Positions 7,144-63,411 of a DNA stretch of 64,000 nt are shown in pieces. The notes beneath the pieces are model-generated. The model had not been told where the DNA came from. It made no database searches and worked only from the letters and a program-made list of their open reading frames with translations. The position numbers and the translations under genes were made by a program. Each line of letters starts with the position of its first letter. Within the stretch, counting starts at the first letter, position 1. The DNA is from Hydrolagus colliei (Eukaryota), in the NCBI GenBank assembly GCA_035084275.1, contig CM068751.1, positions 8,122,001-8,186,000 of the forward strand, read 5' to 3'.

Positions 7144-10100
7144 ATACTTCATCACATTGAGACAATTACAACAAATAATAGTCCTTGCATTTGAATTGCA
7201 CCTCTGGTTTCAGCAGGTCACCTGAGTGCCTCACAGAATTTGCTGTAAAGAGCGGTGACAAAGTATTTTGTAGGTGAATGAAGCATTAGGGAAATGGCGA
7301 TGAGATTGATTTAGGCATTTGGGGAACATCCATGCAGAACCTTTCCACCATGAGATTGAGTGGGCGGATGGGGTCCACTCTAGTGTACCTTTTCTTATTC
7401 AACATGCTCATATGATGTTGATTATGCATAATTGTAGCACAGCCAGGCAGTTAGGAGAAAAACTATATTGGCTCAGAACATATGATGGGAGATGGGAATG
7501 ACCTGACTGTAAAATGGAAATGAAAGGATACAAGACCACAAGAGATATGAAAGGATATGAAGGAAGATGCTACAGGCAATCCTTACCTAGGTCTGTCTCC
7601 ATCTGGAGACAGGCAGAATTAATTGAAATGAGTTGCATCCAGCAGTTGTCCTGGGATTTAATGTGATTTTCTTTATACCAACCCTACAGTTTTACCCATT
7701 GTTTTCCAAACCTAGCTTTTTCTCTTTTTAAAAAAAAACGGTATTTATGAGAACAGTATTATTTTGTAATTAATTTTACAGTCATCCTCGCCAGAAGGAT
7801 AGTCACTAGTTGGTCACTGAACATCCGACAAGTGTAGGCTCAGGCCCTTATTAGGCTGATAGGTTTTGGGTTGGGCTTCAGAAATATTCCTCTGAAATGC
7901 TTTATGTCTGAACCTAATTTGTAAATTGATAAAGTTACCAAAACTCACTAAATTAGTTATATTTTCAAGCAAACAAATTATATGAGTTGTGTTTATTTTA
8001 CAAGAGCCATTGCACTTTTATATCTAAAGCACTCCCAGACGCTACCCTGCATGGAGGGTGCTATATAAATGCAAGTTGTTGTTGTTTTACAGCTATTTCG
8101 CAAAATATGTGAGACATTTCAGAATTTGTGAAAATTGCAAAACCAAATAAAGAGACCAACAGAAGCTCAAACAGTAGAACTCAAAATACCTTGTACTTTA
8201 CCCCAATTTTTTTTGTGCTGGCAGCAATGTCTCTTGAACCTCACATTAACCCACCACTGTCATCAACTTCACAGCTTCACAGATGTGCTGAACTGACAAC
8301 AACAAAATTCTTCTAACCGGTTTATTACAAGCCGCAGACTCTGAACCACTTAAGTTACCGCCACTCCACCTCCTCACCCCCCAACCCCACCTTGTAAATG
8401 TTGACAGTCACAGTTTTGTACTAACTGCAGCTGGATCCATGCACAGGAATAATCATCTCCATAGCAGATCAGTTCATGTCATGTCCTATTTAGTATTCAA
8501 ATAGGCATTGGATTCAACAAGATTCATATGTAAATGTGATGTCTGAATTCCTATTAGCTCCGAAAATCGTTCTGTTTACTTAGATTGAATTTCAGAAGCA
8601 GTAAATTAAAGGAGGGGGAGTGGAATTCAACACTTTAGTCAACCACTTCTCCTCTCCAATAGTTGTCTTGCACTCTCCACAGACTCTTTTTCTATCTCTA
8701 GTTCAGCACCTGTGTGAATGGAGTAGTTAAAGGGTTTTTAAACAATGTGGGGGAGAGAACAAGTTACCAATGCGGGAAGGATGAAATGGATGGAGCCACT
8801 GTAGTTATTTTCGGAGCAAGGGCAGCATCTTGGGAAGAATATGCGAGGAAGAATTACATGCTGCACACTCCACATGGGCAAATTGTTGCAAAACTTAAAC
8901 AGAAATGACAGCCAAGCTCATGAAAGATAGAAAGGGGCGGATACAAAATGAAACCAATTCAACTGAAACAAGATGTAATCTCAAATTCACAACCGCCTTA
9001 AACTGTCGTGCAACTCAACTGCCATTTGAATTATAGCAAGCACTTGTTGGCATCTCATTTACCCCAGTGCAAATCCATATTGTGCCAAATATCCTGCATT
9101 TGAGAGCTGCATTGAGATTTAATTGGCATTCCAAAATGCACAATAAAAGGCTTTCGTGCACACAATCTATTCTGATGGCTCAGGATAATTTATAGGCTTG
9201 AACTCAAGTGATTTCTTTCACAGTGTTAGCTTTAATGCTAGTTAACAAGAGAATTGTACAGGTTAGTACTTATTCCACATTAACTATTCAAGAATCTTAA
9301 TTCTCCACAATATGCATAAGGAATTATGACTTGTCGTAAATATTGTGGTAAAGGGAATCATCACCACTACCAACAACTTAATGATTTTTAGTTTAGCAAC
9401 TTTATTTTGCTCTGGAGTGTGTGACGATTGCCCTGATTTCAGGGTTAGGTGGAGTAAAAAGTAAATACATAACAATGAAAGTTATTTTACTCAGAAAAAT
9501 GTGGGTTTTAGTCACATAACTGTTCAGAACTAAGAAACATAATAAGCACAAGCAGTTTACCATTTGTAGGTATACAACAATGACAATGTCAAGCGCTCCG
9601 AGATGCTAACCTGCGTGAAGGGCGCCATATAAATAAATGCAGGCTGTTGTAGTAAATTTAATGGGAGCATTAAGATGGATCATCAGCATTCGTGAGGGCT
9701 TTGAAATCAATTTCAATAACTGTTCTGAAAATTATCAGCAGAAACTGAAGGCGAGAACGTGTGTCTAGACAGCTAAACCCCTTGGACTTAATTATTTTGT
9801 CCTCACCAATAACATTAGCCATCTCTTTACAAACTTTCCATCGCGAGTCAATTTTATTTTCTGCTTTTACAATTTTGTGACTCACAACGTAAGAAGCTGG
9901 CAATGCAATTTTATGGGCCTCTTGTTGCTTTTAAGAAAAAGTGTTTGTTGACAAATCTGTTAATAATGTAGTGCTGCCCTTCTGGTTAGTAAAACAGTGA
10001 TGCCTTAGGTTACACTCCTTTTGTACTCCAGTACCTTGTAAACCCACAAGTCATTGTGGTAACTTGTCCCCATTCAGAGTAAACAAACAGGTAGTCCATC

Positions 10101-10829
10101 CATTTCCCAATGACTCTGGATTGGGTGCAGTGTTCATCACTAATTTGATGTCTCTGACTTCAACTCATTTTGTTGTCGCAGAACATTTGATATTGCAGTC
10201 TTCACTCTGCTAAGCCAGTTTGCAAACTCACAGACACAAAAACTCTACGACTCTGTCACCCCAGCTGGAAAACCCCAAGGGTAGTGTAGGGGAACCCGCT
10301 GGAAAACCAAAGTGACTCATAACGGTTAAGATTGTAAGAATTTGCATCCGATTTTTAATTCTTCTAGATTTATTACTTTTAAGCATTTGTTTGTGTAAGG
10401 CTCAAGTGGATCGAGTGCCATATAAAATGGTCATAAAATGGAGCAATACTGTCACTATTATTGTAATGGTGTATGAATACACTGATAGACTTCAATATAA
10501 TTTCCTAAATCAATTGCTATACAAACAATACGGATAAGTTTGCTAAATCCTACAAGTGAATAACTGAAGAAAATCTCTATCTTCTGCAATTACACTTACG
10601 CTGCTATATGATACACTTTTGCTGTAAAGATGAACCAATTCAACCATTGACCACAAAGGATACTAAGTTTGTATCTGGGTGCCTTCATCACTTATTGGTC
10701 ACCAGCGAGTGTCAGGTGTAGTTGCAGAGCAGACGAGTTGCATTCTACACATGTTTGCTGACAAGGCTAAAGGAAAATTCAATTGAAATGCCAACGATCC
10801 CCTGCTCTGGTCCCAACCTTGGGACGTTG

Positions 10830-10905
10830 TTGTATTCTGTGAAGCACTTTGAGACGTCGATAAGATGTGGAAAGCTTTATATAAATGTAAGGATTATTAT
10901 TATAT
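10830..10905 (+). mobile_element. SINE 3' fragment
   Basis: TATTCTGTGAAGCACTTTGAGACGTC...AAGGATTATTATT. Confidence 0.8.
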
Positions 10906-11134
10906 TCTAGTGTATCTATTGGTCTTAGTGTTCAGTTACTAGAGCAAATGCCCCTCATTTAGTGAGTGAATAATTGAGGAGTTTCCCATAGATATGACTG
11001 ATCTGGCATTTGGATACGATTTGGTTAATCACAGGCACGTTGGAAATCCCAGAAAATAAACGACAAATGATGCAGAGCCTCAGAGCACGCCATTTCATTC
11101 ACAACTTTCACATTTCTTCAACACAATTAAACGT

Positions 11135-11473
11135 TGGGAGTCCTGTAACTCAGTGCTTGGAACGCTCGCCCTCCCAAGCGAAAGACCCGGGGGGTGTGAG
11201 TCCCGGCAGGTCAGGGCAAAATCTTGGGAAAGTGCCCTCACTCCACACGCCTGATAATAACGCCTCACAAACAAACGCAATAATGAATTGCTCACCTTGA
11301 TCCACGGCTGTTTGTAGGGACGCCGCTGGGCGCAATTGGCTGCCGCGCTTCGCCCACAAAAATATACAGTCGATCCGCTTTGCAGTTGCACTCTGCGAAG
11401 CGCTTTGAGAATGTCTCGAAGCCCGTGAAAAGCGCTGCGTCAAACGCGAGGATTATTTATTATTAGTAGTATT
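11135..11473 (+). mobile_element. Full-length tRNA-derived DeuSINE-type SINE, strongly GC-shifted
   Basis: Colinear with the family consensus (tRNA-like head, GCGCAATTGGCTGCCGCG core, L2-type tail, (ATT)n). Confidence 0.9.
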
Positions 11474-11574
11474 AAATGAGTTTACGTTGCCAATGATCTG
11501 GCTAGGTCTCCACCTTGAAGCCAACATCCCCCCCCCGAGTAACATCTACACCGACTGTTCTGTGTGGCGGTTTT

Positions 11575-11658
11575 GTCGATTCTCTTTACCGTGCGTTCCG
11601 TGAGGCGCTCTGAGGCGATAAGGCGCTGTATCAAGTGCAGGGATTGCTAGTGTTATTA
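11575..11658 (+). mobile_element. SINE 3' fragment, strongly GC-shifted
   Basis: GTCGATTCTCTTTACCGTGCGTTCCGTGAGGCGCTCTGAGGCG..ATAAGGCGCTGTATCAAGTGCAGGGATTGC aligns to the consensus tail. Confidence 0.8.
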
Positions 11659-11833
11659 TGGCCATCAATACTGACATTCGACCAAGCGGGTGACTTGTCT
11701 CTTGCTCTTGAAGGCGTCTTGAAAGACAGTTTTGACAACAGCCAAACAAACTGTGGGAATTAACCATTTCTTTCTCGGCCCCCCCACCACTCCAAAAAAA
11801 ACCCACCAACACACACACATACACAACCCTCCA

Positions 11834-11864
<31 letters not shown>

Positions 11865-11876
11865 AAGTTTACTCAC

Positions 11877-11981
11877 CACAATCAAAGATGGACTGACAGC
11901 CACAGAGGCGTTGTGGCGGATTTCTGCAGCTGTCCCTGGTTTAAAGAGCCCTTTTGTGAAACGTCGACTGGATTCTCCCAT
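11877..11981 (-). CDS. DOCK10: First coding exon (35 codons, phase-0 donor) of a DOCK-D/Zizimin guanine nucleotide exchange factor, most similar to DOCK10 isoform 1
   Basis: Translates MGESSRRFTKGLFKPGTAAEIRHNASVAVSPSLIV, matching the N-terminal R(K/R)FT..L.(K/R)PG.AAE.R motif of DOCK9/10/11. MGE, RRFT, RH and VAVS favour DOCK10; KPGTAAE is DOCK9/11-like, so the family is secure and the paralogue less so. Strong Kozak context (CAACATGG) and canonical donor GTG|GTGAGT at 11876-11871. Confidence 0.8.
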
Positions 11982-12976
11982 GTTGAGATGGCTGGGATCA
12001 TTGACAGATTGAAACCACGCAAAGTGCGTGTGTGTATGTGTCTGTCTGTCTGTGTGTGTCCCACGCCTTGTTAATGACTGACTGACTGTGACTGACTGAC
12101 TAACTCACTCACTAAGTCTGATGGTTTGTTAAACCAGGAAGCGGAACTCAATGCTGCACAATGATAATTATAACAAATGCCATTTACTCTTTTCCCCAAT
12201 AAATCTTCAATCCACAATATTTTTTGTTTCCCCCTCCCCCCACACTCTCCTTATTCTTTTTTTCTTCTTGTTGTATTGTATGTATGTATATGTGTGTGTG
12301 TGTCTTGTGAGCAAACCTCTTGTCTGTTACAGGACTGTGAAAGTGAAATCCCATCAGATCACTCTAGACGTGATGTGCCTGAACTAATTATCTACCCACC
12401 TCCCTTTTTCTGCTTAGCTGTCGGTTAGCAGAAAAAAAATAGTTTGTAGAAAAGACCACATCTTAACCCTCCCTGACCTTTTCCTAATGATTTCATCTCT
12501 GGAATAACAAATAATTCTGGCTTTATTGCAATCAAGTGTGTGTGTGTGTAAAAAAAAACACCACTAATTATTCAGTTACGGTTTGGTTAGGTTACAAAAG
12601 CTAGATCAGCATTTTAGTTATATTTCCTACAAACATTTTCATTTCTGTCTCAACTTTTTGCAGCTCAGTTTCTCCCAATTGTTAGCACCACCTAGTGCTG
12701 GCAACTCACAAAATCGGAACTGTGTTTCCCTGCCTGTATTTGTAACTGACTACAGGGTTAGTTTATGGTTGATGGTCCCATTTATCAAACAAAAATAGTT
12801 ACAATTTGGCCACTCAATCCATTGCCACAGATTTAATTTCTTAATTAAAAAAAAAAAATGTTTACAGATATGCTTCTCTAAAATCTGCAAATTTCATCAG
12901 GTGAGATTCTTTTTCCGTCCAATGATCAACGGGATTGTCTCCCGGGCGCGGCTTTACTTAACTTGAGTATTTATAA

Positions 12977-13177
12977 TGATAATAATATTAATCTTTGCAT
13001 TTGATATAGCACCGGATCATGTTTCTAGACTAATCAAAGCGCTTCGCAGAATATACTGTATTGTAAAGTGAATTGACCGTATATTTTGTGGGCGAAATGT
13101 GACAGCCAATTGTGCACAGCATTGTCCCACAAACATTCGTGGATTGAGCGACCAATTTATTCTTTTAAGGGATTATC
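12977..13177 (-). mobile_element. 5'-truncated SINE
   Basis: Reverse complement of the family 3' two-thirds with an (AAT)n tail. Confidence 0.85.
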
Positions 13178-14514
13178 ACTTAATGGTTAAAAAAAAATGC
13201 ATAGTTGCTGTTTTGGAAAAGGTTGCTCGTCTGTTTTGTGGTTATTTGTTCCGTTCAGGTGACTGGTTACTTGAATCTGTGGGGAAAAGTTCGCTCTGTG
13301 TGGGGATAAATTAGTTTAAGAAGTGAAGCGTCTCAGAAAACATGAGAGACCGAAATTAGCAACTTTCTCTTTGTATATATTACTTTCAATCAAGCAGTGG
13401 CAGCCCAGATTTACATTGTAGACATACTGTACATATATATATAGTATATTGTATGTATGTGTATATATATATGTGTGTGTGTGTGTGTAAATGTGTGTAT
13501 ATAGCAATCCCTTCTCCAAAGTTATTAAGGTTGGAAGACTGAGAGATACAGAAGTTATCGGAATATACCATGGGCTACTGAGATTGACGGACAACAATGA
13601 GAAGTTGCCATATTGATGATAGTAGTAGTGACAGGCAGGGTGTTATAATCAGAAGTTAGGCCTCTGTTTCATGATCTCATAACGTGGGATCCAGCAGTAG
13701 GGAACGAACATTTTTTTTGCCTTTTGCTTTCAATGGTTGTTAATATAATAGATCAAATATGTATGAGGTATTAAGTAACCTCGCCCATGTCAACTTTTAT
13801 CTCCTCTCTAACTTTAATACAGTGGACCCAGGAGATGTGCTCTGCAGGCAAAGATGAACTCTCACAGGGACATGTATCACAATGTCAGAATCAGTAACGT
13901 GTAATGTTTATGTATTAGAAAGGCTCTTACGGCAGTTGTCGCAGGCTGGAATTGGAAGGACTGAAGCCCATCGCATGTCTCCTCTTGCTGCTGCAGTAAT
14001 GCCTTTGCAGTAATTCCAAATTATTATTTCTATTGTTTATTTGAGATTTTTTTTTAAAAAGCAAAACATTTTTATTTGTTCTGGTTGTATTTTAAGTTCT
14101 CTACATCTCTATGGAAAGGTTTCATGAGGTGGTACATTAACACACCAACAATTTAATTTGCTTGAAATGATTTTTCAGTTTTTACAGTAGATCACAAATG
14201 AGACAACTTTCAATATATAGTCTCCTACTTTATGATCTATTATCGTTGATACTGCTTATTGTATAATGTTATGAAGTGGGGAATTAAGATAACCTAGATT
14301 GCCTTTGGTTACCCATCTTTATGGCTTGTAGTAACATGGATTCTGGTGAAGACCAGTCAATTGATAAACTTGAAAACAATAGGCCCTAAATTGTCTATTT
14401 TTGTCCCTAGCTAATTCCTCTAATGTTGGCAATGTCCCTTGTGGCTATTATGTTCTTATGTTCTTAGGTTGCAGCCACCAAAATTGTATCAGTACCCCAG
14501 GTGCTGCTGCTGCA

Positions 14515-14695
14515 AATGAAACTTGTACAGTGCCTTTCAAGAGGACGTCCCTGGACAGTCACTGTTTCAGACCCGAGCTGGGGTTGGGATCGGGGAGGGG
14601 TGGACGGAAAGGAGGGGAGGCACGGTGACCAATAGGACCATCGAAGAAGTCAACAATTTCCATTTATATAGCCCTTTTCATACGTCTCGGAGGAC
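14515..14695 (-). mobile_element. L2-clade LINE 3' UTR fragment plus a second short tail
   Basis: GTTTCAGACCCGAGCTGGGG...GGTGACC is near-identical to the L2 3' UTR at 55870-55950. Confidence 0.75.
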
Positions 14696-17600
14696 ACAAA
14701 CTGATCAACTTTAGCATGACCTGAGGGGATCTGAACTCAACCAATTCGGTAAAACAGCCCAACATCCTATTTGTCTTGTTCTACCTTTCCTGCCATGCCA
14801 GATGATATTTATTAGAGTATTTTTTTGTTCAAGATTTTTTTTTCTGATGTTGTACCTCATCAGTTTTTCAATGATTGAGGTCAAGCTGATGGATTTTAGC
14901 TGATGGTTAAACACAATGTACACGATAAGGGAAATGGTTCATAATCTCAACCATCTGAGGATGCCAACATGTTTTAGTTTGTGTATCTAATCATTGATTA
15001 ACTATAGAGATAACCTTTTTGCCACAACAGAGGATGCTACTATTGCAGAATAAGCAGGTTCTGCAAATTGTCTTTATAATTAATTTGTATAGCAGATTAT
15101 TGTATGAATAGATTAATTCTGATTTGCACACAAAGTAAACACAGGCTCCCAGTTGAATTTATCTTCGGATATTTGTATTTTAATTAACCTTTTTTTTAAT
15201 TATAGAAAGACTTTTGTTTCAAATAAAAGGCAACTTAAAATATCACCCAAAATAATTGAAGAAGGAAATAGTCAATGAAATTTCACAATCCTAAATATTC
15301 ACTTTAGTGCTCTTAATAAGTAAATATCTTGCATGATGTCTAATCATGCGGTATGAGAATTACATCACATGAGAGATCTTTAATGGAAACAAAGACACTA
15401 ACAGCAAACATTGAATTTTTTCATCAGGGAACAGATATCACAGCAACTAAAACAGCCAAAACAAATGCTTGTCTGATCCGATAAGAGTCAGACATAACCC
15501 ATGGTAATGATGGACAGAGAGAAGTGAATAAATGCAATGAAAGGAATTCAGACTTCCTCTGAAGTCCATTACATATTGGCATTAATTATATTTCTAAACA
15601 CAGTTATTCAGCTGGCTTTCTCAGGCCTCACTTATATGCTGGCAATTACTGTCAAAAGAAAACCTCCACTTTTTTCAGGCAACAAATTGATTAGCTCAGA
15701 ATCTGCACTTACAAAGTCTGTGCATCAGGCACTTCATTTAATTTGTTTTAATATTACACCATCAGCTGAATATGAAGCAGTCATAATCGGATGGGCTACA
15801 TCTAGATTGGATTGTAATTGAGCAGAAATCCAAGATTCAATTGAACAATCGCTAAATTTGAAAGAAACATCATAACTATTGTCTGTAACACGGTACGTAA
15901 CTTGGGAAGCGTTTAATTTATAGTTACTTGGACTGTATGTTGTTAAACTAGCTTATATTTGCTGTAACCAACATACAAATGAGAGCAGTTATAAGCACAT
16001 TACTGCTTCTGTACGAGATTCCAGTTTGAATTCTGTAATGTGATGGTCAAAGAAGAAGGAACATGAGAGGCAACCCAACTATCAGCTTCCAGCCAGTGGC
16101 CATGGAAAGCTGTAATATTCATAACACATTACTGTCAGCATTTTATTTGCAAAAAAAATCATTTTTGCCCCACAGTCATGTGGGGATTATTCTCCAAAGT
16201 CATGCAATTTTTACTCTTATTTGTTCGCTTATTGAACAGAAATACAATTTGAGTGACACGCAGAGATGCAAATGCGTGACACATCAATTGCACCACAAAC
16301 TATAATTGCTGCACATTTATTTAAGCAGTTACAGATAATCACCTAAACTGTACAAGTGAATTGATGACAAGCTGTTCAAAGATATGACTGCAACTTGCCA
16401 CTCCTCTAACCCCTGTACAATGCAGATAGAATACATTTTGAGCATAATTTACTGTGTTTGTGAAGGAAATATTTTGTAAGGTTTTTTTGTTTCCTTTTCC
16501 TGTTCTGTTTGCTTTCAGAGCTGCCTTGTCTTGGTGTTATCCTTAAGGAGAAACTGAGAGTGTACACGCAGGGTAGAGGACAGACACACAACATTGACAA
16601 CAGCAACAACAAAATTACACTTGTATAATGCCTTTCACGTCAGAAGAACATTAAGTATTTTCCACCAAAGAATAGTTATGAAGCAGGCAATAATTTTTAT
16701 TAACTTCTGTTTTACCCAGAAGGCCAGGTATCTTTTGTCAAGCTGTTTGTGACAGAATAATTCTGCAGAAGTCGTAAGTTAAATAATATCTCTAAAGAGA
16801 TTTGAAAATACCAAATATGAACTGTGAAACTTTCCAGAATTACTGTATTATCAAATATAATTTGATAACACTATTTAGAGCATTCATTTATTAAGCTGCG
16901 ATACTGAACAGTTTGGGTGTCAATCTGTGTTCAGATTTCTCTGCAGCAGCAAATGTAATAATCCTCCAAATTAATTTAGTATTTGATCTGTACTGTCAAC
17001 GTTTTCTGAACGACTAGCTCCAATCGCTATGATGTGCAGTAAATTACAAAGGTCTCAAGGGATAGTATTCACATCTGTAAAATGTGAGTATAGATGAAAC
17101 CAGAGAGTCTAAAACTGATCATGGAATTCTTTGTTTTCTGCTACAGATACATCATAAACCATAACTATACTATCCAGAAGGATGTCTGGCCAACACAGGA
17201 TTAGACTCAAACTACTCTGTTTCACACAAGAATTAAGTGCAGTGGCTCAACAAATTGAATGCACTGCCTCACTGGAAGCCCTTTTTGTATTATTGATGTG
17301 TTCTTAAAAGAACATTTCTCATTGTAGCATTCACCTGTTGTTCACAATTCCACACTGACAGCGCACTGGAAAAGGAGAAAGTACATGTGCAGAGTTGCAA
17401 TTTGCAACAGTGGACCGAAGCTTGGTAAGTGGAAACATTGAACAATAATGTGTATTTTTGAAGCACCCTTCGCATAGGAGGGTGCTTCATATGTGCGCTT
17501 CACAAGCATGGCATCGGATGCTGAGTAAGGGAGCAGGGAGAGTCAGAGGGTAGGGATGGGGAAAGTAACAATAAGCATGGTCAAAGAGGTAGTTTTTTTC

Positions 17601-17808
17601 CTAACATCCTCGTCAAAATGGTTTGACTTGCTTATGAATTCCATCTCACACGTAAATTACCCCGAGAGATGTCATGTGAAACTGAGCTGTTCTTTAGAAT
17701 TCGTTTTTTAATAGTGGCAGAACCTCCAAAATACTGATGTGCTTGCAACACAACATCCTGCGCCCTGACTAGTATGAGTCAAAATGGCTTGTCTGATAGT
17801 TTCATATA

Positions 17809-19012
17809 CAGTAGAAGCTAGGGTCCGTTGATATGGAAATTTTCCGATTTAGATATATCGGTAGGCTCATATCGAAATATACCAAAATATCGATATTTTT
17901 GGGGGTTTCGTACTGCGCATGGAGGTAAATAAATATCTTTCTCTCTCTGTGTCTCTCACACTCACTCTCTCCATCTCTGTGTTTTTCTGTCTGTGTCTCT
18001 GTCCTCTCTCACATCCCCCCCATCTCTATTTGTATATTATCACATCCACCCCGTCTCTCCCCCCATCCCCCCCCCGCCACCGTCCCTCTCTCCTCCCCCC
18101 CCCCACCCGCCGCCGATCCTCTCTCTCCCCCCCCCCCACCCCTCCCCCTGCCATCTCTCTCCCCCCCCCCAGCCCTTGCATACCTGTATATTGTATTCGA
18201 GGACTATGAATACAATATGGCGGCTTTGCAGCTCGGTCTGTGCATTGTGTATAGAGATGAGCATTCTGGGTCTTGTAGTTCAGTGTGCACGCATTCAGAT
18301 TTTTTCCTTCGATATATCGACTTTTTCGATATATCGATATTTTTGAAATGCCTATATCGGTATATCGATATGAAATATATCGGGTTTTAGCGATATATCG
18401 ATATATCGCCGAACCCTAGTAGAAGCCCGTTTATCCGTGACTCGAGGAACCGGCACTTCCGTATAACCGGCACGCCAAAAAAAAGTCCCCATTCGATAAA
18501 CCAGAACTTATCCAGAACAATAGCAGTGGAGCATTTGTAAATGCATAAATAATAACACAATAACAGAATATTGTATTGGTACTTATTGTTAAAACTACTC
18601 TCTTGCGCTTCTCACCTTTGCTGGTAGATCCTGCGCTTGAAGCCATGATGCTGCGGTTTGCCGATAGTGGGGTCTAGGGCTATCGGCTTACCGCTAGTAA
18701 AGTCGCGAGACTTTAAAATCACGCTGCCGTTTTTTTTCACCCACTTGGCGTCCTCCATTTAAAAAAGAATCGCTGGACTGTAAACCTCAATCAGTAAAGG
18801 TAAGAAGCGCAAGAGAGTAGTTTTAACATTAAGTACCAACACAATATTCTGTTAATATCTGTTATTGCTTAATCTGGTGTGTATGGTGAGTGTTAAAAGA
18901 ACTTTAATTTTTTTGTTGTGGGTTTTCGGCCGCGGGCCGCCCGAATATCCAGCAGGCGCTTTAACCAGCATCGGCCAGGTCCCGCAGATGCCGGATAAAC
19001 GGGCTTTTACTG
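17809..19012. mobile_element. Non-autonomous Tc1/mariner pogo/Tigger-family element, interrupted by a hAT MITE
   Basis: TIRs CAGTA(G/A)AAGCCCGTTTATCCG...CGGATAAACGGGCTTTTACTG with TA TSDs (17807-08 and 19013-14). Internal minus-strand MASSAGSTSKGEKRKRVVLTI resembles the N-terminus of Tigger/Jerky-like transposases. Confidence 0.85.
17819..18418. mobile_element. Non-autonomous hAT-superfamily MITE (600 bp)
   Basis: Termini TAGGGTCCGTTGATAT / ATATCGCCGAACCCTA. Exact 8-bp TSD GTAGAAGC at 17811-17818 and 18419-18426. Subterminal (CGATATATCG)-type repeats and a C/T-rich centre. Confidence 0.9.
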
Positions 19013-19848
19013 TACTTTGTCTGTGTATTCTTTACACAAAAATTGTTGACTTTCGTGTTGAACAGTATTCTGCCTGTCAAGACAGACAGGTTTTGAGAAC
19101 TTCAGTAACAGGCATAGGGGCACAGAAACAGAGACACTTGTTTTCAAGCATATCTCCAGGCAAGAGACACTGCAAAGAGATACATGTCCTTTTCATCCTT
19201 TAACAGATAGAAAACTGCAGTTATGTGTTCATTCTTCGGCTTGCTAAAACCATCACATAGCCTCCAGCAATTTTCATCATTCATATGCCAACCATTTTGA
19301 CTTGGATAGATTTGAAAAAAAAGGTGCATCTCTGGAAGAGATTTGGTTTTAAAAATAAAACAAATCTTCTGTAATTCATAGTTGGAGTGTAGGTACAGTA
19401 CATGGTTAGAGAACAATTCTGTATTTGTAGGAGAAACATGTTGTGGATCAAATAAGAAATCTATCTGGATAGGTAAACACCGACTACAAGTTACAATTGA
19501 GATGCAGATGGTATTTTCACAACAACCCGCGAGTGTGTATTCATAAGACTGATTTTATTTTGGAAAACAATAGTAAAACATACTTTTGGGGTTAAATGTT
19601 AGGGGACACCACTGGTGAACACATAGGGCCAAGATTCATAGAAGTTAGTTTATTCATATCTTTTTATCCACCAAATCAGAAATACTCACTGGGACTGAGG
19701 TTAAAATACATTCTTCAAGCCAACAAATAGCAATTTATATTTAGGGCAAAGCTGACTTTACTTTGCTGTTTCTTCTTTTACTGACGCACATTCCTGTGCC
19801 ATTCTGTGCTCCTTATTGTGTGGCAAATGGACAATAAAGAACAAACTG

Positions 19849-20005
19849 TAAAATACTGCAGCTACTGGAACAACAGCAACAAAATGCCATGCCTTTCACA
19901 TTGCAAGGAAACAAAAACAGAAGTGGGAACACTCAACAGTCAGGCAGCATTTATGGAGAAAGGAAAGTGAGTCGACGTTTCGGGTCCACGACCCTTCGTC
20001 AGATT
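19849..20005 (-). mobile_element. Penelope-like-element-derived short repeat carrying a hammerhead motif (copy 1)
   Basis: AAAATACTGCAG...AAAAACAGAAG...TCAGGCAGCATTTATGGAGAAAGGAAAGTGAGTCGACGTTTC; homologous to 58504-58635. Confidence 0.7.
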
Positions 20006-25770: not shown

Positions 25771-27416
25771 TATATATGTATATATTTTTACTTAATTGTG
25801 TTTGTGTAAACTAACCCACAGTATTCTGGTAAATATTTCAACATGTAATTCTGGTGAAGGTCCAGATAAGGAACTAAATCATTTTGAAACAGTGAAAGTT
25901 ATCCTTTTAGAATCACAGAATTATAGCAAAATTACGATGTGGAGGAAGCAGGCCATTTGGACCAACTCAACAGCAAGCTGCTCAAACTGGACCTGAAAGT
26001 TTGTAAGCAGTCAAATCAGATACATTATCAACCATATAAAGTGTGAACTTCCAGCATTACAGCTATTTTCTCCTAGAGAAAAATACAGTCAACTCCGTGA
26101 AGCGCTTTGGGACATCTTGCAGACGTGATAAGGCGCTATACCAACTGCGAGGATTATTATTATCAATCACGTTATTCTGTTTCCATATATACAGAAAGAG
26201 AAGACTGTTACACTACGCAGAGTGTTTCCATGAGCGACATTGAAGAGGTTCATTGATTGTAAGAACATACCACTGGTGCCACAAACAAACACCACATCAC
26301 TTGCTCCATATTTGTATGGCTCATTAGCAATGGTTAAGCATAATCTATTTGTCACGTAAGTGCCTTGGGACGTCCTCCCGACGTGAAAGGCGCTCTAAAA
26401 ATGCAATGTTGTTTGTTGTTGTCACACCACCACCACTGAACATGTGCTTATGATCCATTATAATCATGAAACTGCACAGGATACCGTTTTTAAAACAAAA
26501 ATCCGGTATAAAATACCTATTTGGTGCTTGAGAGGCAAACCTGAAATCATTTTCATATGCTATGTATCAGATGTCCTTGCAATAGTGGTCTGGATTATGT
26601 TAATTGGACACATGATCAGAAAGTCTTGCTCTCAATCCAGTGCCTGAATCAGTCACTTGTAGATTTTAATTTGCTCATTATTTGCATTCAAGACAGGTAA
26701 TGATGAATATTTAACAGCAAGCAGGAGAGGAAATGTTGCTGTGGGGGTGGTGGGATAGTAGGTCAAGACAGCTGATTTTCAGGCATATAAAATGTGTGTA
26801 GGTGAGCTACTTAGAAGCAAGGAACACTAAAAATAAATGCTCCCTTCATCTGTGAGGAATATTTCAGAGAAACTATAACTGCAGATGGCAACCCGAATAA
26901 ATTGTGTTTCACTACCACATATTTGTTCAGCCCTTGCTAAAATGTAAAACAAATATCGTTTTTATTTGATGTGTTATTTTCTACAATTCTAGTTTGATTT
27001 CAAACTGTAGGAGGGCCATTCACCCCCAAGCTATTTTGCTTCTTTTCCGCTCAAAGAAAAATAATGAAGAACATGAGTAATAAACAGATTAATGAGCATG
27101 GTTTTAATTCTACACTTGCAATGCTGGTAGTTTCACATCTATTTCCTAGTTCTGTGGAGGTGTTTGAGTGCAGAACAAGCCGAGGAAACACAGGTAGCTA
27201 ACAATAAATTAACTAGTTCTTCTGATCTGGTGTTGCACTCAGCTTTTTGTGTAAATATCAATCCATCAGCTCAACCGAACTTCGTACTCAGGAAGTTTAC
27301 ATCCAAGAAATATGTCCAAGGTGATCAGGGCTCATGCAGCAATCTTCAAATCTGTTGAGGAAAATATGTCAAAATGTTTATGGAAAGAATTTGAAATAGT
27401 TCTGTGATACCATATA

Positions 27417-37852: not shown

Positions 37853-38202
37853 ATTAATAATAATATTAATCCTTTCCTTTGATACAGTGTCTTATCGTAT
37901 CATTGAAGCATCTCTCAGTGTTTCTCAGGTACATTCTAAAGTGGATTGACTGTGTACTTTGTGGGCATAAATACAGCGCCTTTCATGTCGGGAGGACGTC
38001 TCAAAGCGCTTAACAATGTTGAGTGAGCACTCGAGCTGGAGGTAATAGCTGAGAGGGAGAGGGGATGGGGGGGATCGATGAACAAAAGCACATGTTCAAA
38101 CAAAGCTCACTTTTATAATAAAAGCTTTGTTTCTCTGCGGCGATCCGAGATGTGTCGACAATGCAACAATACGGCGTTCTATCAAATGCAAGGATCATTA
38201 TT
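37853..38202. mobile_element. Cluster of SINE and L2 tail fragments in both orientations
   Basis: Minus SINE tail 37853-37968, minus L2 tail about 37972-38070, plus tail about 38120-38202. Confidence 0.65.
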
Positions 38203-41086
38203 GCACTTTTGTGAAGGATCACATCGAAAAGTTAAATTGTCTTTCTTTCCTGTTCAGTTCCTTGCCAGACCTGTTCCTAGCAGTTTATGATTCTATTTGA
38301 GATTTTCAGCGCTATTTGTTTCATCTAAGCTCACTTATTCTTGCATATTTTATTGGGTACTTGCACGTTGTGGTGTTTCAAAACAACATTTGTGTTATCT
38401 TTCTGTAAGCCTGACGATGTGAATGCTATACTTGAATGCCATTGCTATTGCCTCTATCTAAAAGTAGCAGAGGATGAAGTTTGTCCTGTTGATGCGAAGT
38501 GGACAACAGAATTAATTTGGTACGAACGCATCTACTTGATAGCTTCAGGATTTACTTGGACAAGCACTTACAAGGTTACAAACATTTAAAAAAAATTTAT
38601 ATAAATTATACAAAGAGTCAATCCTTTAGAGTCAATCCATCCAATACAAAACTACTATAAGTTATAATTAGGGCTGTAAGTGCCTTTTAAAGAGTCTAAT
38701 TCAATGGATATGTTTTAAGCTTCCTCCTTAGCTAGGGATCAACACATCTGTTTTTCAGCCGCCAGAGTTTAAACATCTGACAATAGTCAGAAAAGCAAAT
38801 AACCTCTGACTTGGAGGGTGGCAGAAAGACGTATCTGCAGTTACAATCACTTAAACAAAAGCAGCGTTTGAATGTTGCTTTGTCATTTTCATTACTTAAA
38901 TCAGTTCTTAAAATTCCTTCTGAATGCATGTATCTGCTTAACATGCATTTTGTTCACAGAACACATTATAGAAAATCAGCTAAAAATGGACATAGTCTAT
39001 GAGAAACATAGGTTTCACACATATTTTATTAAAACTTAAATATAGGTCTGTGCCAGTGAAAATTAATCTCATAATATTATATATTTAAATATGTTCCACA
39101 ATATAGCGATGTGGGGCAAGGCTCTGTCTCTTTCCATTACCATCTCTCTTCTTCTCTAGGGCAGCTACAGAATAATTTTTCCACATAGCTTACCACACCA
39201 TTCACATCAGTATACTCCCTCTGCACACACGTTATAAGGAGAGAAATTCCACCTGGATCTAGATTTACTCTATTTATGTAGCATATCAAAGCATCCAAGA
39301 ATTTGGCAAATTTCTGAATTCACTCTCAACTTTGAAGCCAGTGTTCTCCAGCCCTTAAAGCAACTCACAGAAAAATGCCATGTTTCAGAGTTTGCCTAAT
39401 TCCGAACACACTCTGAAATGCTACATAAATACAGTATATTTAGAAGCAGGTGAAATCTCTCCCAGATTCTGTTTCATTTTCCTTTCCTCCCTCAAACTTG
39501 CTCCCATAGGACTACACTATCATTTGCTGGCACTCTCTGACTTTCATTCACTTTTCATTCAGTGACTGACTCACTGCTTTCCTTAACTATCGTTCTATTG
39601 ATATCACTCCTCCATTTATCATAACTAATAAACTGCTAAGTTTAATTGTGTTCAGTATTATGGCAGCCAGTAATCCCTGTGGCAGATGCAATGTTGGACA
39701 GTTTGGCCATCGATCCTTTTAAGTCTCCTAAACATGGCATAGAAATACTTGTTTTATCATCATTAAAAATCAAGCAGCAAGCTGTAGTTGTATGTGTTAA
39801 ATGTAAATTTGAACTAAAAAAAAGATAATGCAGTAAAGTAGTAATAATTAGTCGATATTAATCAGTTGTTGAAACCCAACTATGATTATATTTTAAAACA
39901 GACTTGACGTCCATCTTAGTGGAATTTCACAAAATACTGAATAAATGTTTCTTCATGATATACTGTTCTGTAGTTCCCAATATCAACTAGTTGGATAGTA
40001 CATGAAGCAATTTAGAATCAAATAGGCTATTCATTTTTGTCTGTAGAACCCTATACTTTGCTATAGGATGATATAAAGAAAGTCAAAGGTGAATTTTGTT
40101 CAAGATCCATGACCCAAGGTCTTCAGAAATCTCCATATCAAAGCAACAAAATCTACAGAGACAAAAATACTAAACTGCATTAGTTTCACTGCAGGCTATT
40201 GCTTTTTTGATATTTCAAACACTGTTAACACTGCTAAACAGAAGAAAATCTTTCAAAGATTTTCAATCATTTGGTTAAATAGTTCAATGAGTATTAGCTG
40301 TCTTTTTTTTCTGCATCTATTTTAACCATAACTGAGGCATATATTTCCCTGAGGTTCACGTTTGCCTTTTACTTTTGGGCACCTTTATAGAAGCCTCAAA
40401 AATATGTTTGTTAAATCTACATTCATTTGACAGAATCGACACGTTTATTATTACAAAATGTTGCCATGTTTTCAAGCTGTGAATATACCCAGCACTGCAT
40501 ACAACCAGGTACAAACCACTTTCAAAATTTCTACCGACAACAGCTCGGACTATTAAAAATACACAGATGCACCACAGTATAGATCTCTCACGGTGTGGAT
40601 GGAAACAGATAATGCATATTGAATGACAGAGTCTTCAGATTACTAAATTAGGAAAACCTCAGTAAAAGGGCTGTGTGCCTGTAAATCAATGTGACGGATC
40701 ACTTTCACAGTAAGATGGATTGGATAAACATGCGCTGCATAACAGTGGTTAACTATTAAAAGTATTAGCATAAAGCTATCTCGTTTTTAAAAATTCCTCA
40801 GTGAGCAAACACTTTGATGCATGTAATTAACTCTTACCTTGCTGAATAAACAGAAATTACAGCTTTGTATTTTTGTAAAATGCCGGTGTGCTGACGTCTC
40901 GCCTGGAGTCAGTGTTTTTCCTTGTGTAGTGACCCAGAGGAGAGTCATACCAGATTCATGAGCACTTTCAGCTGTTGGCCTCCTTTTCGACAGTCAAAAT
41001 GCACCTCAAACATCCGCTTGCATCACAGGACGTGCTTGGTAAAGGTATTTTTCCTAATGAGAAAAACATTCTCCATAATAATACTG

Positions 41087-46230: not shown

Positions 46231-46546
46231 TGGAGTCCTATAGTCCAGTGGTTAGAGCACTTGCCTCGCAAGTGAGAGACCTGGGTTCGATTACCAGCAG
46301 GGTGAAACCTTGGGCAAGTTTCCTTACTCTACATGCCTGAAAATAATTCTTCAAGAAGAAAAAACAAAGATAAATTGGTCACTTCAATCCATGACAGTTT
46401 GTGGATCACTGCTGTGTGCAATTGGCTACCACGTTTCTCCCACAAATATACAGCCAATTCATTTTACAGTATATTCTGTGAAGTGGCTTGAGAGACCTAA
46501 ATGACAAGAGAAGCACTATATCAAATGCAATGATTATTTATTATTA
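46231..46546 (+). mobile_element. Full-length SINE (CTCGCAA head variant)
   Basis: Consensus match. Confidence 0.9.
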
Positions 46547-57234: not shown

Positions 57235-57358
57235 AGCACATTTTACATGCGTAATTGGCTGCCGTGTTTTCGCCCACAAATTGCAGTCAATTCACTTCAC
57301 GGTACATCCTGTGAGGAGCGTTGATAAGGCGTTATATCGAATGCATGAGTTATTATTA
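57235..57358 (+). mobile_element. Older SINE 3' fragment
   Basis: TAATTGGCTGCCGTGTTTTCGCCCACAAA...GATAAGGCGTTATATC. Confidence 0.75.
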
Positions 57359-57423
57359 CAACATGGAAAAATACTCACCTGGAGATCATAATTGAAATAC
57401 GCATTGGTAATACAATACTATTA

Positions 57424-57726
57424 TCCTGTAGCTCAGTGGTTAGAGCACTCGCCTTACAAGCATGAGACTTGTGTTCGAATCCAGACAGGTCAGGGCGAAA
57501 CCTTGGGCAAGTTTCCTTACTTCACACGCCTAATAATAATCCCTCAAAAAAAAAAAAAATTGGTCATTTCAGTCCATGACTGTTTGTGGGACACTGCTGT
57601 GCACCACTGCCATGTTTCACCCACAAATATACAGGCAATTCACTTTACAGTATATTCTGTGAAACGCTTTAAGACGTCTAAAAGATGTGAAAAGTGCTAT
57701 ATCAAATGCAAGGATTATTATTATTA
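57424..57726 (+). mobile_element. Near full-length young SINE
   Basis: Consensus match. Confidence 0.92.
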
Positions 57727-61659: not shown

Positions 61660-63059
61660 TGATATGGTTCCACAGGCACTGGCATCCATCCGCTAGCTCA
61701 CTGTGTTTCATATTTGAGCCAAGACAGCGAATATCACCAGACTATTTACTATTTACATTTTTTATATTTTAAAGCAAGAACATGCAAATGCAGGCTTGGC
61801 ATTGAATTGGCCTGAACATTGCTCCAAATCGCAACCAAATTTATAAATATCTGATTCAATGACAATAGGTGGTTTTGAACTGCTGCACATGCCAGCAAAC
61901 AGAGCAAGCTTTTCTTAAAGTTTAATAGCAGAGCTTAAAAAGTTCCCAACTTATCATGTGGTACTTTCATTGTTTGGTCAAAATCAAGAGACAATTGGAC
62001 AATCGGCTGCACAGAAATGTTGAGAATGTAGCAGAATTCAAACACTAAGTTATGGATGTACTTTGTCCAAGTGCAGAGCAGTGTGGAGCTAGCACTATAA
62101 CTGTGCCCTCTAAACTCCTGTCAAATCCATACCTGCTGTATGACAGAGCATCAGATGCATCTGCATTGCAATGTAGAACCTATTTATTGTGTGTATGGTT
62201 CGAAGGTGCTAATATTATTCAATATTAAATGGGTTTAGTTTGAAAGAGACTATATAATTTTATTTAAAATGTCATTGAATATAGTTTAGTTTAATGCCAT
62301 GCATTAAATATGAATTATATTTTAATAAATTTAAATATCAAAATTATAGTTACTTACTCTCGATATATTAGCATAAATTGCTTTGAACGATTATTCATAC
62401 CATACAGTATTGCTTTTACAAAGTCACTTTTGTCATAAGTGGTATTGACTCATTTGAATTCCAGATAATCTTATTTTTCCTTTATGGAAACATAAAGTGC
62501 AGACAGCATTAAATGTGGGGGAAAAAAAGTTAGACTCACATCATATTCATATTGCTGCTGGTAACTGGAAGCAAATTTATTATGAAGAGCCAAAGTTGGA
62601 GTGTGGGAAAATTAATTTACTAGTTATCATGTTATAGGGTGTGGTTCAAATGGATAAGATGCCCTGGGGATTGCTCCTATAATTCATTGCTGTAAAACTT
62701 TTGATCAGGGTCGTGACTGGAGTACAACTCCTCCAGTTTTAACATGAGTTGGCTGAGCGCCTTGCTGTTTTGCACAATTGAAGTTAGACGGAAGCATTCG
62801 AAGACCCAGCTTCCAACGGTAACTGGATCCAGGATTTAGCGCCTTGAGGTGTCCTCCTGACATGAGAGGGGCTCGACAAATATGCTGTGTCGCCGTTGAT
62901 GTTGTTTGATGCTGCAGCCCATCAGTTTCTTCTTTAGAACATGTCTTACTTCCAGGAAGTTAGGTCGCTGCTAACACTGCTTTCTATCATCGCTCAACAT
63001 TTACACGATGTAACAGAGACATTACGAATGCCACTTTCTGCTCACCACTGATATCACTT

Positions 63060-63411
63060 TAATAATAATAATCCTTCTGTTTGATATGGAGCCTTATCAC
63101 GTTCTCTTATCATGTGAAAAGCGCTATATCAAATGCAAGGATTATTATTATTATTATTAGACATCTCAAAGCACTTCACAGAATATAACTGTAAAGTGAA
63201 TTGACTGCATATTTGTGAGTGAAATACGGCAGCCAATTGCGCACAGCAGTGTCCCACAAACAGTCGTGGATCAATTTGTTACTGTTCTTTTCTTGAGGGA
63301 TTATTATCCCTAGAGTAAGGAAACTTGCCTAAGGTTTCGCCCCACTGAGAATCAAATCCAGGTCTCTTGCCTGAAAGGCAAGTGCTCTAACAATTGAGCT
63401 ACAGGTCTCCA
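63060..63411 (-). mobile_element. SINE with an oppositely oriented tail fragment (63112-63158) inserted near its 3' end
   Basis: AATAATAATCCTTCTGTTTGATATGG...GCGCTATATCAAATGCAAGGATTATTATT, after which the host resumes at AGACATCTCAAAGC. Confidence 0.85.

Follow-up and report, generated by a model that had tools for sequence, protein, structure and literature searches.

Why should two short interspersed elements (SINEs) beside the first exon of a gene in the chimaera Hydrolagus colliei carry G or C at so many positions where their relatives carry A or T? The stretch of DNA that we analysed, referred to below as the window, comprises 64,000 nucleotides of contig CM068751.1 and is AT-rich (approximately 38% GC, CpG o/e 0.44). 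The original prediction held that the two copies, here termed S1 and S2, record a narrow and long-lived recombination hotspot at which GC-biased gene conversion (gBGC) replaced A/T by G/C, and that they sit just inside intron 1 of a DOCK gene.

The gene assignment starts from a minus-strand exon of 105 nt (11981-11877), which encodes 35 residues and is followed by a splice donor. An HMMER search with the exon peptide returned 8 matches among 1.84 billion proteins, and a Pfam check of 5 of these 8 revealed a DOCK domain (DOCK_C-D_N) in P0005 only, which is 76% identical to the exon over residues 1-34. When P0005 was used as a tblastn query it landed on the exon with 69% identity over 39 amino acids (E 3e-13), the N-terminus of killifish DOCK10 landed there as well, and DOCK9 N-termini were less alike (the series running 69%, 57%, 51%). 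We call the gene DOCK10-like because of the DOCK_C-D_N domain in P0005, the shark DOCK10 proteins that are the nearest longer relatives of P0005, and the tblastn identities; judged by this homology, the exon is part of a DOCK10-like gene. A direct homologue search with the exon, the PDB and the ESM Atlas gave no matches, in contrast to the HMMER library search, and no further DOCK exons were found in the 64-kb window. The shark DOCK10 records P0009 and P0010 carry an N-terminus unlike that of P0005, and the gene therefore has alternative first exons, although no first exon of the P0009/P0010 type was found in the window. Measured from the first coding exon, S1 and S2 lie 217-740 bp into intron 1, which bears out the predicted setting (Table 1).

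Table 1. Features of the locus, in window coordinates; ratios are A/T-to-G/C : G/C-to-A/T changes.
Feature	Position	Strand	Properties
CpG-island-like segment, 760 bp	11031..11790		GC 0.499, 44 CpG, o/e 0.94
S1, full-length dead tRNA-headed SINE, B box degenerate	11137..11474	+	rewritten to G/C, strongest in 3' quarter
S2, 3'-tail fragment, older tail type, internal deletion	11576..11659	+	rewritten to G/C, 17:0
Control SINE tail, normal, bounds zone on intronic side	10832..10906	+	3:2, 4 CpG losses, GC* 0.39
Control SINE 3' part, normal, about 1 kb upstream of ATG, bounds zone on promoter side	12973..13176	-	7:5, 6 CpG losses, GC* 0.43
First coding exon, DOCK10-like gene, 35 codons	11877..11981	-	splice donor 11876; GC3 14/34

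An HMM built from 13 sibling copies produced 74 nhmmer hits in the window, from which we kept 42 non-overlapping copies (E<1e-4), namely 23 long siblings, 17 short fragments, S1 and S2. The head of this SINE is tRNA-derived, with A and B boxes, and ARAGORN calls a tRNA-Ala and a tRNA-Val inside two sibling copies; the calls, at 46234-46305 and 57421-57494, are SINE heads and not tRNA genes. For S1 (11131-11474, plus strand) the reference was a leave-one-out consensus of the 23 siblings, each covering at least 150 model columns, with the A-rich tract and every CpG or ambiguous column dropped before counting. S1 stands apart from its siblings in composition (GC 0.552 and 25 CpGs, compared with GC 0.376-0.459 and 3-11 CpGs in the 23 siblings and 14 CpGs in the consensus) and in divergence (0.178 versus 0.112), and in a tree of 17 copies that is otherwise star-like it forms the lone long branch. 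Elsewhere in the window, the SINE 3' end at 63054-63260 includes part of another SINE tail in inverted orientation, and a third repeat family, represented at 9575-9670, has only 4 copies.

Outside CpG columns, A/T-to-G/C (W>S) changes occupied 31 of 142 sites in S1 (0.218), compared with 151 of 2759 in the pooled siblings (0.055; p=3e-11). The opposite, S>W, changes stood at 6/100 versus 166/1884 (8.8%; p=0.21), and GC-conservative changes ran at the same rate in both, 4/242 (0.0165) versus 79/4643 (0.0170), a comparison of low power in which one of the four S1 changes realigns as A>G. The W>S:S>W bias of S1 differed from that of the siblings in a Fisher test (p=2e-5) and in a conditional binomial test (p=6e-6, or 1.4e-4 after a 24-fold correction), persisted when any change present in two or more of the other 41 copies was left out (20:4 versus 71:95, p=3e-4), and corresponds to a GC* of 0.78, compared with 0.38 in the siblings. 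Along the element the ratio rose from 11:5 in the 5' half (S>W at 5/52 sites) to 20:1 in the 3' half (1/48), the latter reproducing, with CpG columns set aside, the approximately 20 against 1 first counted by eye; by quarters it was 5:3, 6:2, 7:1 and 13:0, the last at 11374-11454. These counts confirm that the one-way A/T-to-G/C excess in S1 is real.

The W>S changes comprised 12 A>G, 13 T>C, 3 A>C and 3 T>G, with no difference between strands (p=0.84), and each of the four classes was raised 2.6-5.4-fold in S1, transitions more (4.6-5.4-fold) than transversions (2.6-fold; p=0.20 for the difference). At sites outside TpG and CpA, S1 had changed in 20 of 104 cases, compared with 108 of 2039 (5.3%) in the siblings (p=5e-7). 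Ancestral CpGs were kept in S1 at 11 of 14 positions versus 130 of 281 in the siblings (p=0.026), and two siblings at a distance from the gene retain theirs about as well (11/14 and 10/13); the retention may be read as modest support for germline hypomethylation.

Several simpler causes were considered and rejected. The balance of 12 A>G and 13 T>C on one strand argues, as the original prediction did, against ADAR editing, and likewise against transcription-coupled asymmetry. Mere retention of ancestral CpGs does not account for S1 either, a point also made in advance, because the bias remains with CpG columns removed and only 9 of the 31 W>S changes are CpG-restoring transitions. Greater age alone was rejected because a no-bias model with free age reached lnL -20.1, compared with -6.0 for a model with gBGC. 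A structured RNA was dropped, there being no Rfam match in 9000-20000. For assembly or sequencing error, we aligned contigs of 4 runs to 9400-11790 at 84% likeness: contigs of the best-matching sample showed 0 differences over 10878-11346 and 11366-11790, three pieces from a second individual differed by 2, 3 and 1 letters, and the GC-rich form is present in this individual and in relatives alike, which excludes such an error.

The evidence from S2 is of a different weight. Against the main consensus S2 gave 13:0, and against its own tail type 17:0 (11 changes fall in the body, the other 6 within or next to the ATT tail), close to the predicted 16 to 0. The own-type reference consisted of 13 copies or fragments chosen by eye because their tails look alike, with the copy at 63054 excluded for its internal inverted piece, and in sum these gave 123:67 (758 W sites, 377 S sites), which amounts to equal per-site rates. 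Compared with them S2 was biased at p=0.002 with a W>S rate approximately twice theirs, and under the private-change filter it retained 5:0 (p=0.16, with the 17 short fragments as reference). The one-way count thus stood, but as weaker evidence than had been supposed, and we treat S2 as supportive, not decisive. Its tail type is common genome-wide, as seen in the loose ends of contigs. Tail-only fragments elsewhere are also W>S-heavy when the main consensus is the reference (9:0 at 26084, 10:2 at 57248 and 16:6 at 1662), and private W>S rates in short old fragments reach 5/35 at 38131-38205, which equals the private rate of S1, 7/59 at 1662-1765 and 4/42 at 26084-26167; these last three are probably remnants of an older family for which that consensus is the wrong reference. 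S1 and S2 have 4 derived sites in common, compared with 4.1 expected by chance, so the two copies changed independently, and neither a shared GC-rich ancestor nor conversion of one by the other is supported. For S1 and S2 together, the A/T-to-G/C rate is two to four times that of the siblings.

Both copies lie in the only segment longer than 500 bp among 6 CpG-island-like segments in the window, and they hold 32 of its 44 CpGs; the island is largely the product of the G/C changes themselves, so that the SINEs did, as predicted, help to build it. Its GC peak lies 300-700 bp inside the intron, off the presumed promoter, the bias is strongest 420-500 bp beyond the exon 1 donor, and 12100-12900 is CpG-poor. 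On either side stands a SINE copy with balanced changes and normal CpG loss (Table 1), of which the nearer had already been cited as a normal sibling, and together these confine the biased zone to 10906-12973, approximately 2 kb. The hotspot width of about 0.5 kb put forward originally therefore holds as a lower bound, but the nearest normal copies limit the zone no more tightly than that interval. A second CpG-rich block, at 17820-19011, has an o/e above 1 and is probably no promoter; its part at 18418-19011 is bounded by terminal inverted repeats of 20 bp (95%) and encloses an inverted pair of 75 bp (18551-18623 / 18792-18866), 17820-18410 consists of self-complementary arrays, and the block likely represents two adjacent non-autonomous DNA transposons.

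A W>S rate raised approximately 4-fold, an unchanged GC-conservative rate, strand symmetry and changes not confined to TpG/CpA together form the signature of gBGC, in agreement with the original prediction. We consider it probable that gBGC produced the bias in S1 and S2 if a hotspot directed by PRDM9 is counted in, and we incline, by a small measure, towards gBGC at a promoter-proximal hotspot in particular. The strength of the bias, expressed as Delta-B by the formula of PMC11161765, is 1.8 for the whole of S1 and 2.9 for its 3' half. Under the promoter-proximal reading, meiotic breaks would recur in the open, hypomethylated start of the DOCK10-like gene, presumably formed without PRDM9 targeting; mismatch repair in heteroduplex DNA would favour G/C; neutral SINE sequence would fix W>S changes at approximately four times the mutation rate; and new CpGs would persist since germline DNA there would be hypomethylated. 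Several observations weigh against this reading: S>W changes in S1 are not significantly lowered (p=0.21), as steady strong gBGC would make them; two distant siblings keep CpGs about as well; the GC peak sits off the presumed promoter, beside an exon of low GC3; S2 loses significance under the strictest filter; and the core diverges between species no faster than the flanks at a significant level (p=0.10). The bias is, moreover, read at one locus, from substitutions. The loss of PRDM9 to which the original prediction pointed is not required, since most mammals that have PRDM9 also have hotspots independent of it, according to the relevant part of PMC11161765; the locus therefore says nothing direct about PRDM9.

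Comparison with a related species (run X8) bears on when the changes arose. Its flanking sequence showed 40 differences in 1417 bases (2.8%), and its orthologous pieces showed 5 differences over 10978-11302 (2 of them outside the SINE) and 7 over 11342-11498, stretches that hold 13 and 15 of the S1 W>S changes, respectively. With so few differences across the 28 covered changes, at least 18 of the 28 predate the species split. Core divergence in X8 and X6 combined was 14/308 (4.5%) versus 53/1939 (2.8%) in the flanks, the comparison at p=0.10 mentioned above. How long the bias acted is a separate matter, as the gBGC likelihood is flat over duration, ranging from 2% of the time at B of approximately 224 to 100% at B of approximately 2 within 1.1 lnL units, and activity fractions f=0.02-0.2 with B of approximately 224-21 fit equally or slightly better than f=1. 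The predicted long life of the hotspot is accordingly not established, and would follow only if very large B is deemed implausible. Were B to have stayed at or below about 20, the model would have the hotspot active for at least about a fifth of the life of the copies, which may amount to tens of millions of years on the CmiSINE clock of PMC5499810, a clock that varies several-fold with calibration.

The flat likelihood is what keeps a first alternative in play, in which a single brief and very hot hotspot, or a handful of them, perhaps directed by PRDM9, landed here by chance. Brief, intense activity fits the counts as well as steady activity does, and the near-normal S>W count in the 5' half of S1 and a narrow peak lying off the exon would suit it. 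It would, however, need a B of tens to hundreds, compared with the approximately 2-3 modelled for human TSS hotspots in the passages of PMC13712754 that treat them, and it would make coincidence of a site beside the only first exon found in the window; the holocephalan PRDM9 described in the relevant part of PMC5519329, furthermore, looks partial. We regard such a transient hotspot as unlikely, though of the alternatives it fares best.

A local mutation bias, in which open chromatin or promoter-proximal damage and repair yields more A/T-to-G/C mutations with no fixation bias, appears improbable to us. Hypermutation at the TSS exists in humans, as the pertinent section of PMC13712754 reports; the second individual carries 3 differences in 109 bases of the S1 3' part (11345-11453) versus 4 in 1420 of the flank (p=0.01 for a segment chosen post hoc; zone-wide, 6/928, p=0.21); and the stronger rise of transitions than of transversions noted above points the same way. 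Yet neither the GC-conservative nor the S>W rate is raised and the strands are symmetric, so that a symmetric mutator acting on W>S only would be needed. Just as improbable is selection for a GC- and CpG-rich intronic regulatory element, an enhancer or alternative promoter, made from the SINEs. That the copies lie in the first intron of a gene with more than one N-terminus (P0005 versus P0009/P0010) and that S1 has more CpGs than the consensus would accord with it, but S1 is more diverged than its siblings, its changes are scattered, reach the ATT tail and in 22 of 31 cases are not CpG-restoring transitions, and divergence to the related species is not below that of the flank (4.5% versus 2.8%).

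The existence elsewhere of a GC-rich SINE subfamily with the same variants had been named in advance as an observation that would count against a hotspot, and the contig alignments show no large one genome-wide. Summed paralogue depth was 1,569,480 at the normal tail bin 10840-10919 and 7,559 (0.5%) at the homologous bin of S1; the paralogues that cease to align continue in A/T form as loose ends in all 4 runs, and at 11234 the letter is T in 99% of the depth. This excludes any large GC-rich subfamily but not one under approximately 0.5% of the family, approximately 390 single-copy equivalents of depth still aligning over the S1 tail bin at 84%. That S1, and S2 with it, came from or was converted by a rare source subfamily of this kind, its changes predating insertion, is the least probable reading: 11 of the 31 W>S letters do recur in two or more of the other 41 copies and S2 does have another tail type, but the A/T form of the paralogues, the chance-level sharing between S1 and S2, the isolated branch of S1 in a star-like tree and the broken B box, by which S1 itself is no source, all tell against it.

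The use of repeats as a readout of gBGC is an established approach, as with Alu. The closest parallel to the gBGC reading is in dog CpG islands after the loss of PRDM9, where the results excerpted from Berglund et al. (PMC4350167) give a gBGC-driven W>S of 0.26 versus 0.06. S1 and the dog islands share an approximately 4-fold W>S excess, CpG retention and islands made in part by gBGC; the dog study, in those results, is genome-wide, with an LD map and a known PRDM9 loss, whereas ours concerns one locus in a cartilaginous fish, polarised by a repeat consensus, and in the dog most of the new islands emerged away from genes, whereas the S1/S2 island adjoins a first exon. The PRDM9-independent 'default' hotspots in hypomethylated promoter-like regions, as characterised in the corresponding part of Joseph et al. 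2024 (PMC11161765), are likewise promoter-proximal with high GC*, and there as here substitutions serve as a proxy for past recombination. Ancestral TSS-associated gBGC in humans was modelled, in the relevant section of Qiu et al. 2026 (PMC13712754), at B 2.6 with its centre approximately 200 nt downstream and sigma 350. Like S1, that model has GC gain downstream of the gene start at B of approximately 2-3, but the human peak falls approximately 200 nt after the TSS, whereas here the strongest bias is placed relative to the exon 1 donor.

The SINE family itself resembles the CmiSINEs SINE2-1_CM and SINE2B-1_CM of Callorhinchus milii, for which the descriptive part of Luchetti et al. 2017 (PMC5499810) reports the same kind of tRNA head with its A and B boxes, a pair of closely related subfamilies, a 3' part common to another tail type and approximately 10^5 copies; mean divergence is 11.2% in the window and 12.6% in the CmiSINEs, families here likened by description and not by sequence. 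In elephant shark, PRDM9 is described, in the portion of PMC5519329 devoted to it, as KRAB-SET without SSXRD, with zinc fingers that are not fast-evolving and with expression undetected. In open-licence PMC and bioRxiv we found no gBGC or recombination hotspot study and no recombination map in cartilaginous fish, only PRDM9 domain surveys.

The mechanism is already known, and the value of the locus lies in lineage and method. We advance only tentatively, as a possibility that we would not yet back, that chimaeras run stable PRDM9-independent hotspots at gene starts, over tens of millions of years, turning an AT-rich SINE into a CpG island. One locus cannot settle whether a partial PRDM9 still directs recombination. 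If the proposal is true, approximately 300,000 near-star-like SINE copies would constitute a dated, base-resolution fossil map of recombination, against which the inactivity of the partial (SSXRD-less) PRDM9 of cartilaginous fish could be tested. And if promoter-proximal copies prove to be biased genome-wide, the role of PRDM9 in the deepest branch of jawed vertebrates would become testable from assemblies alone.
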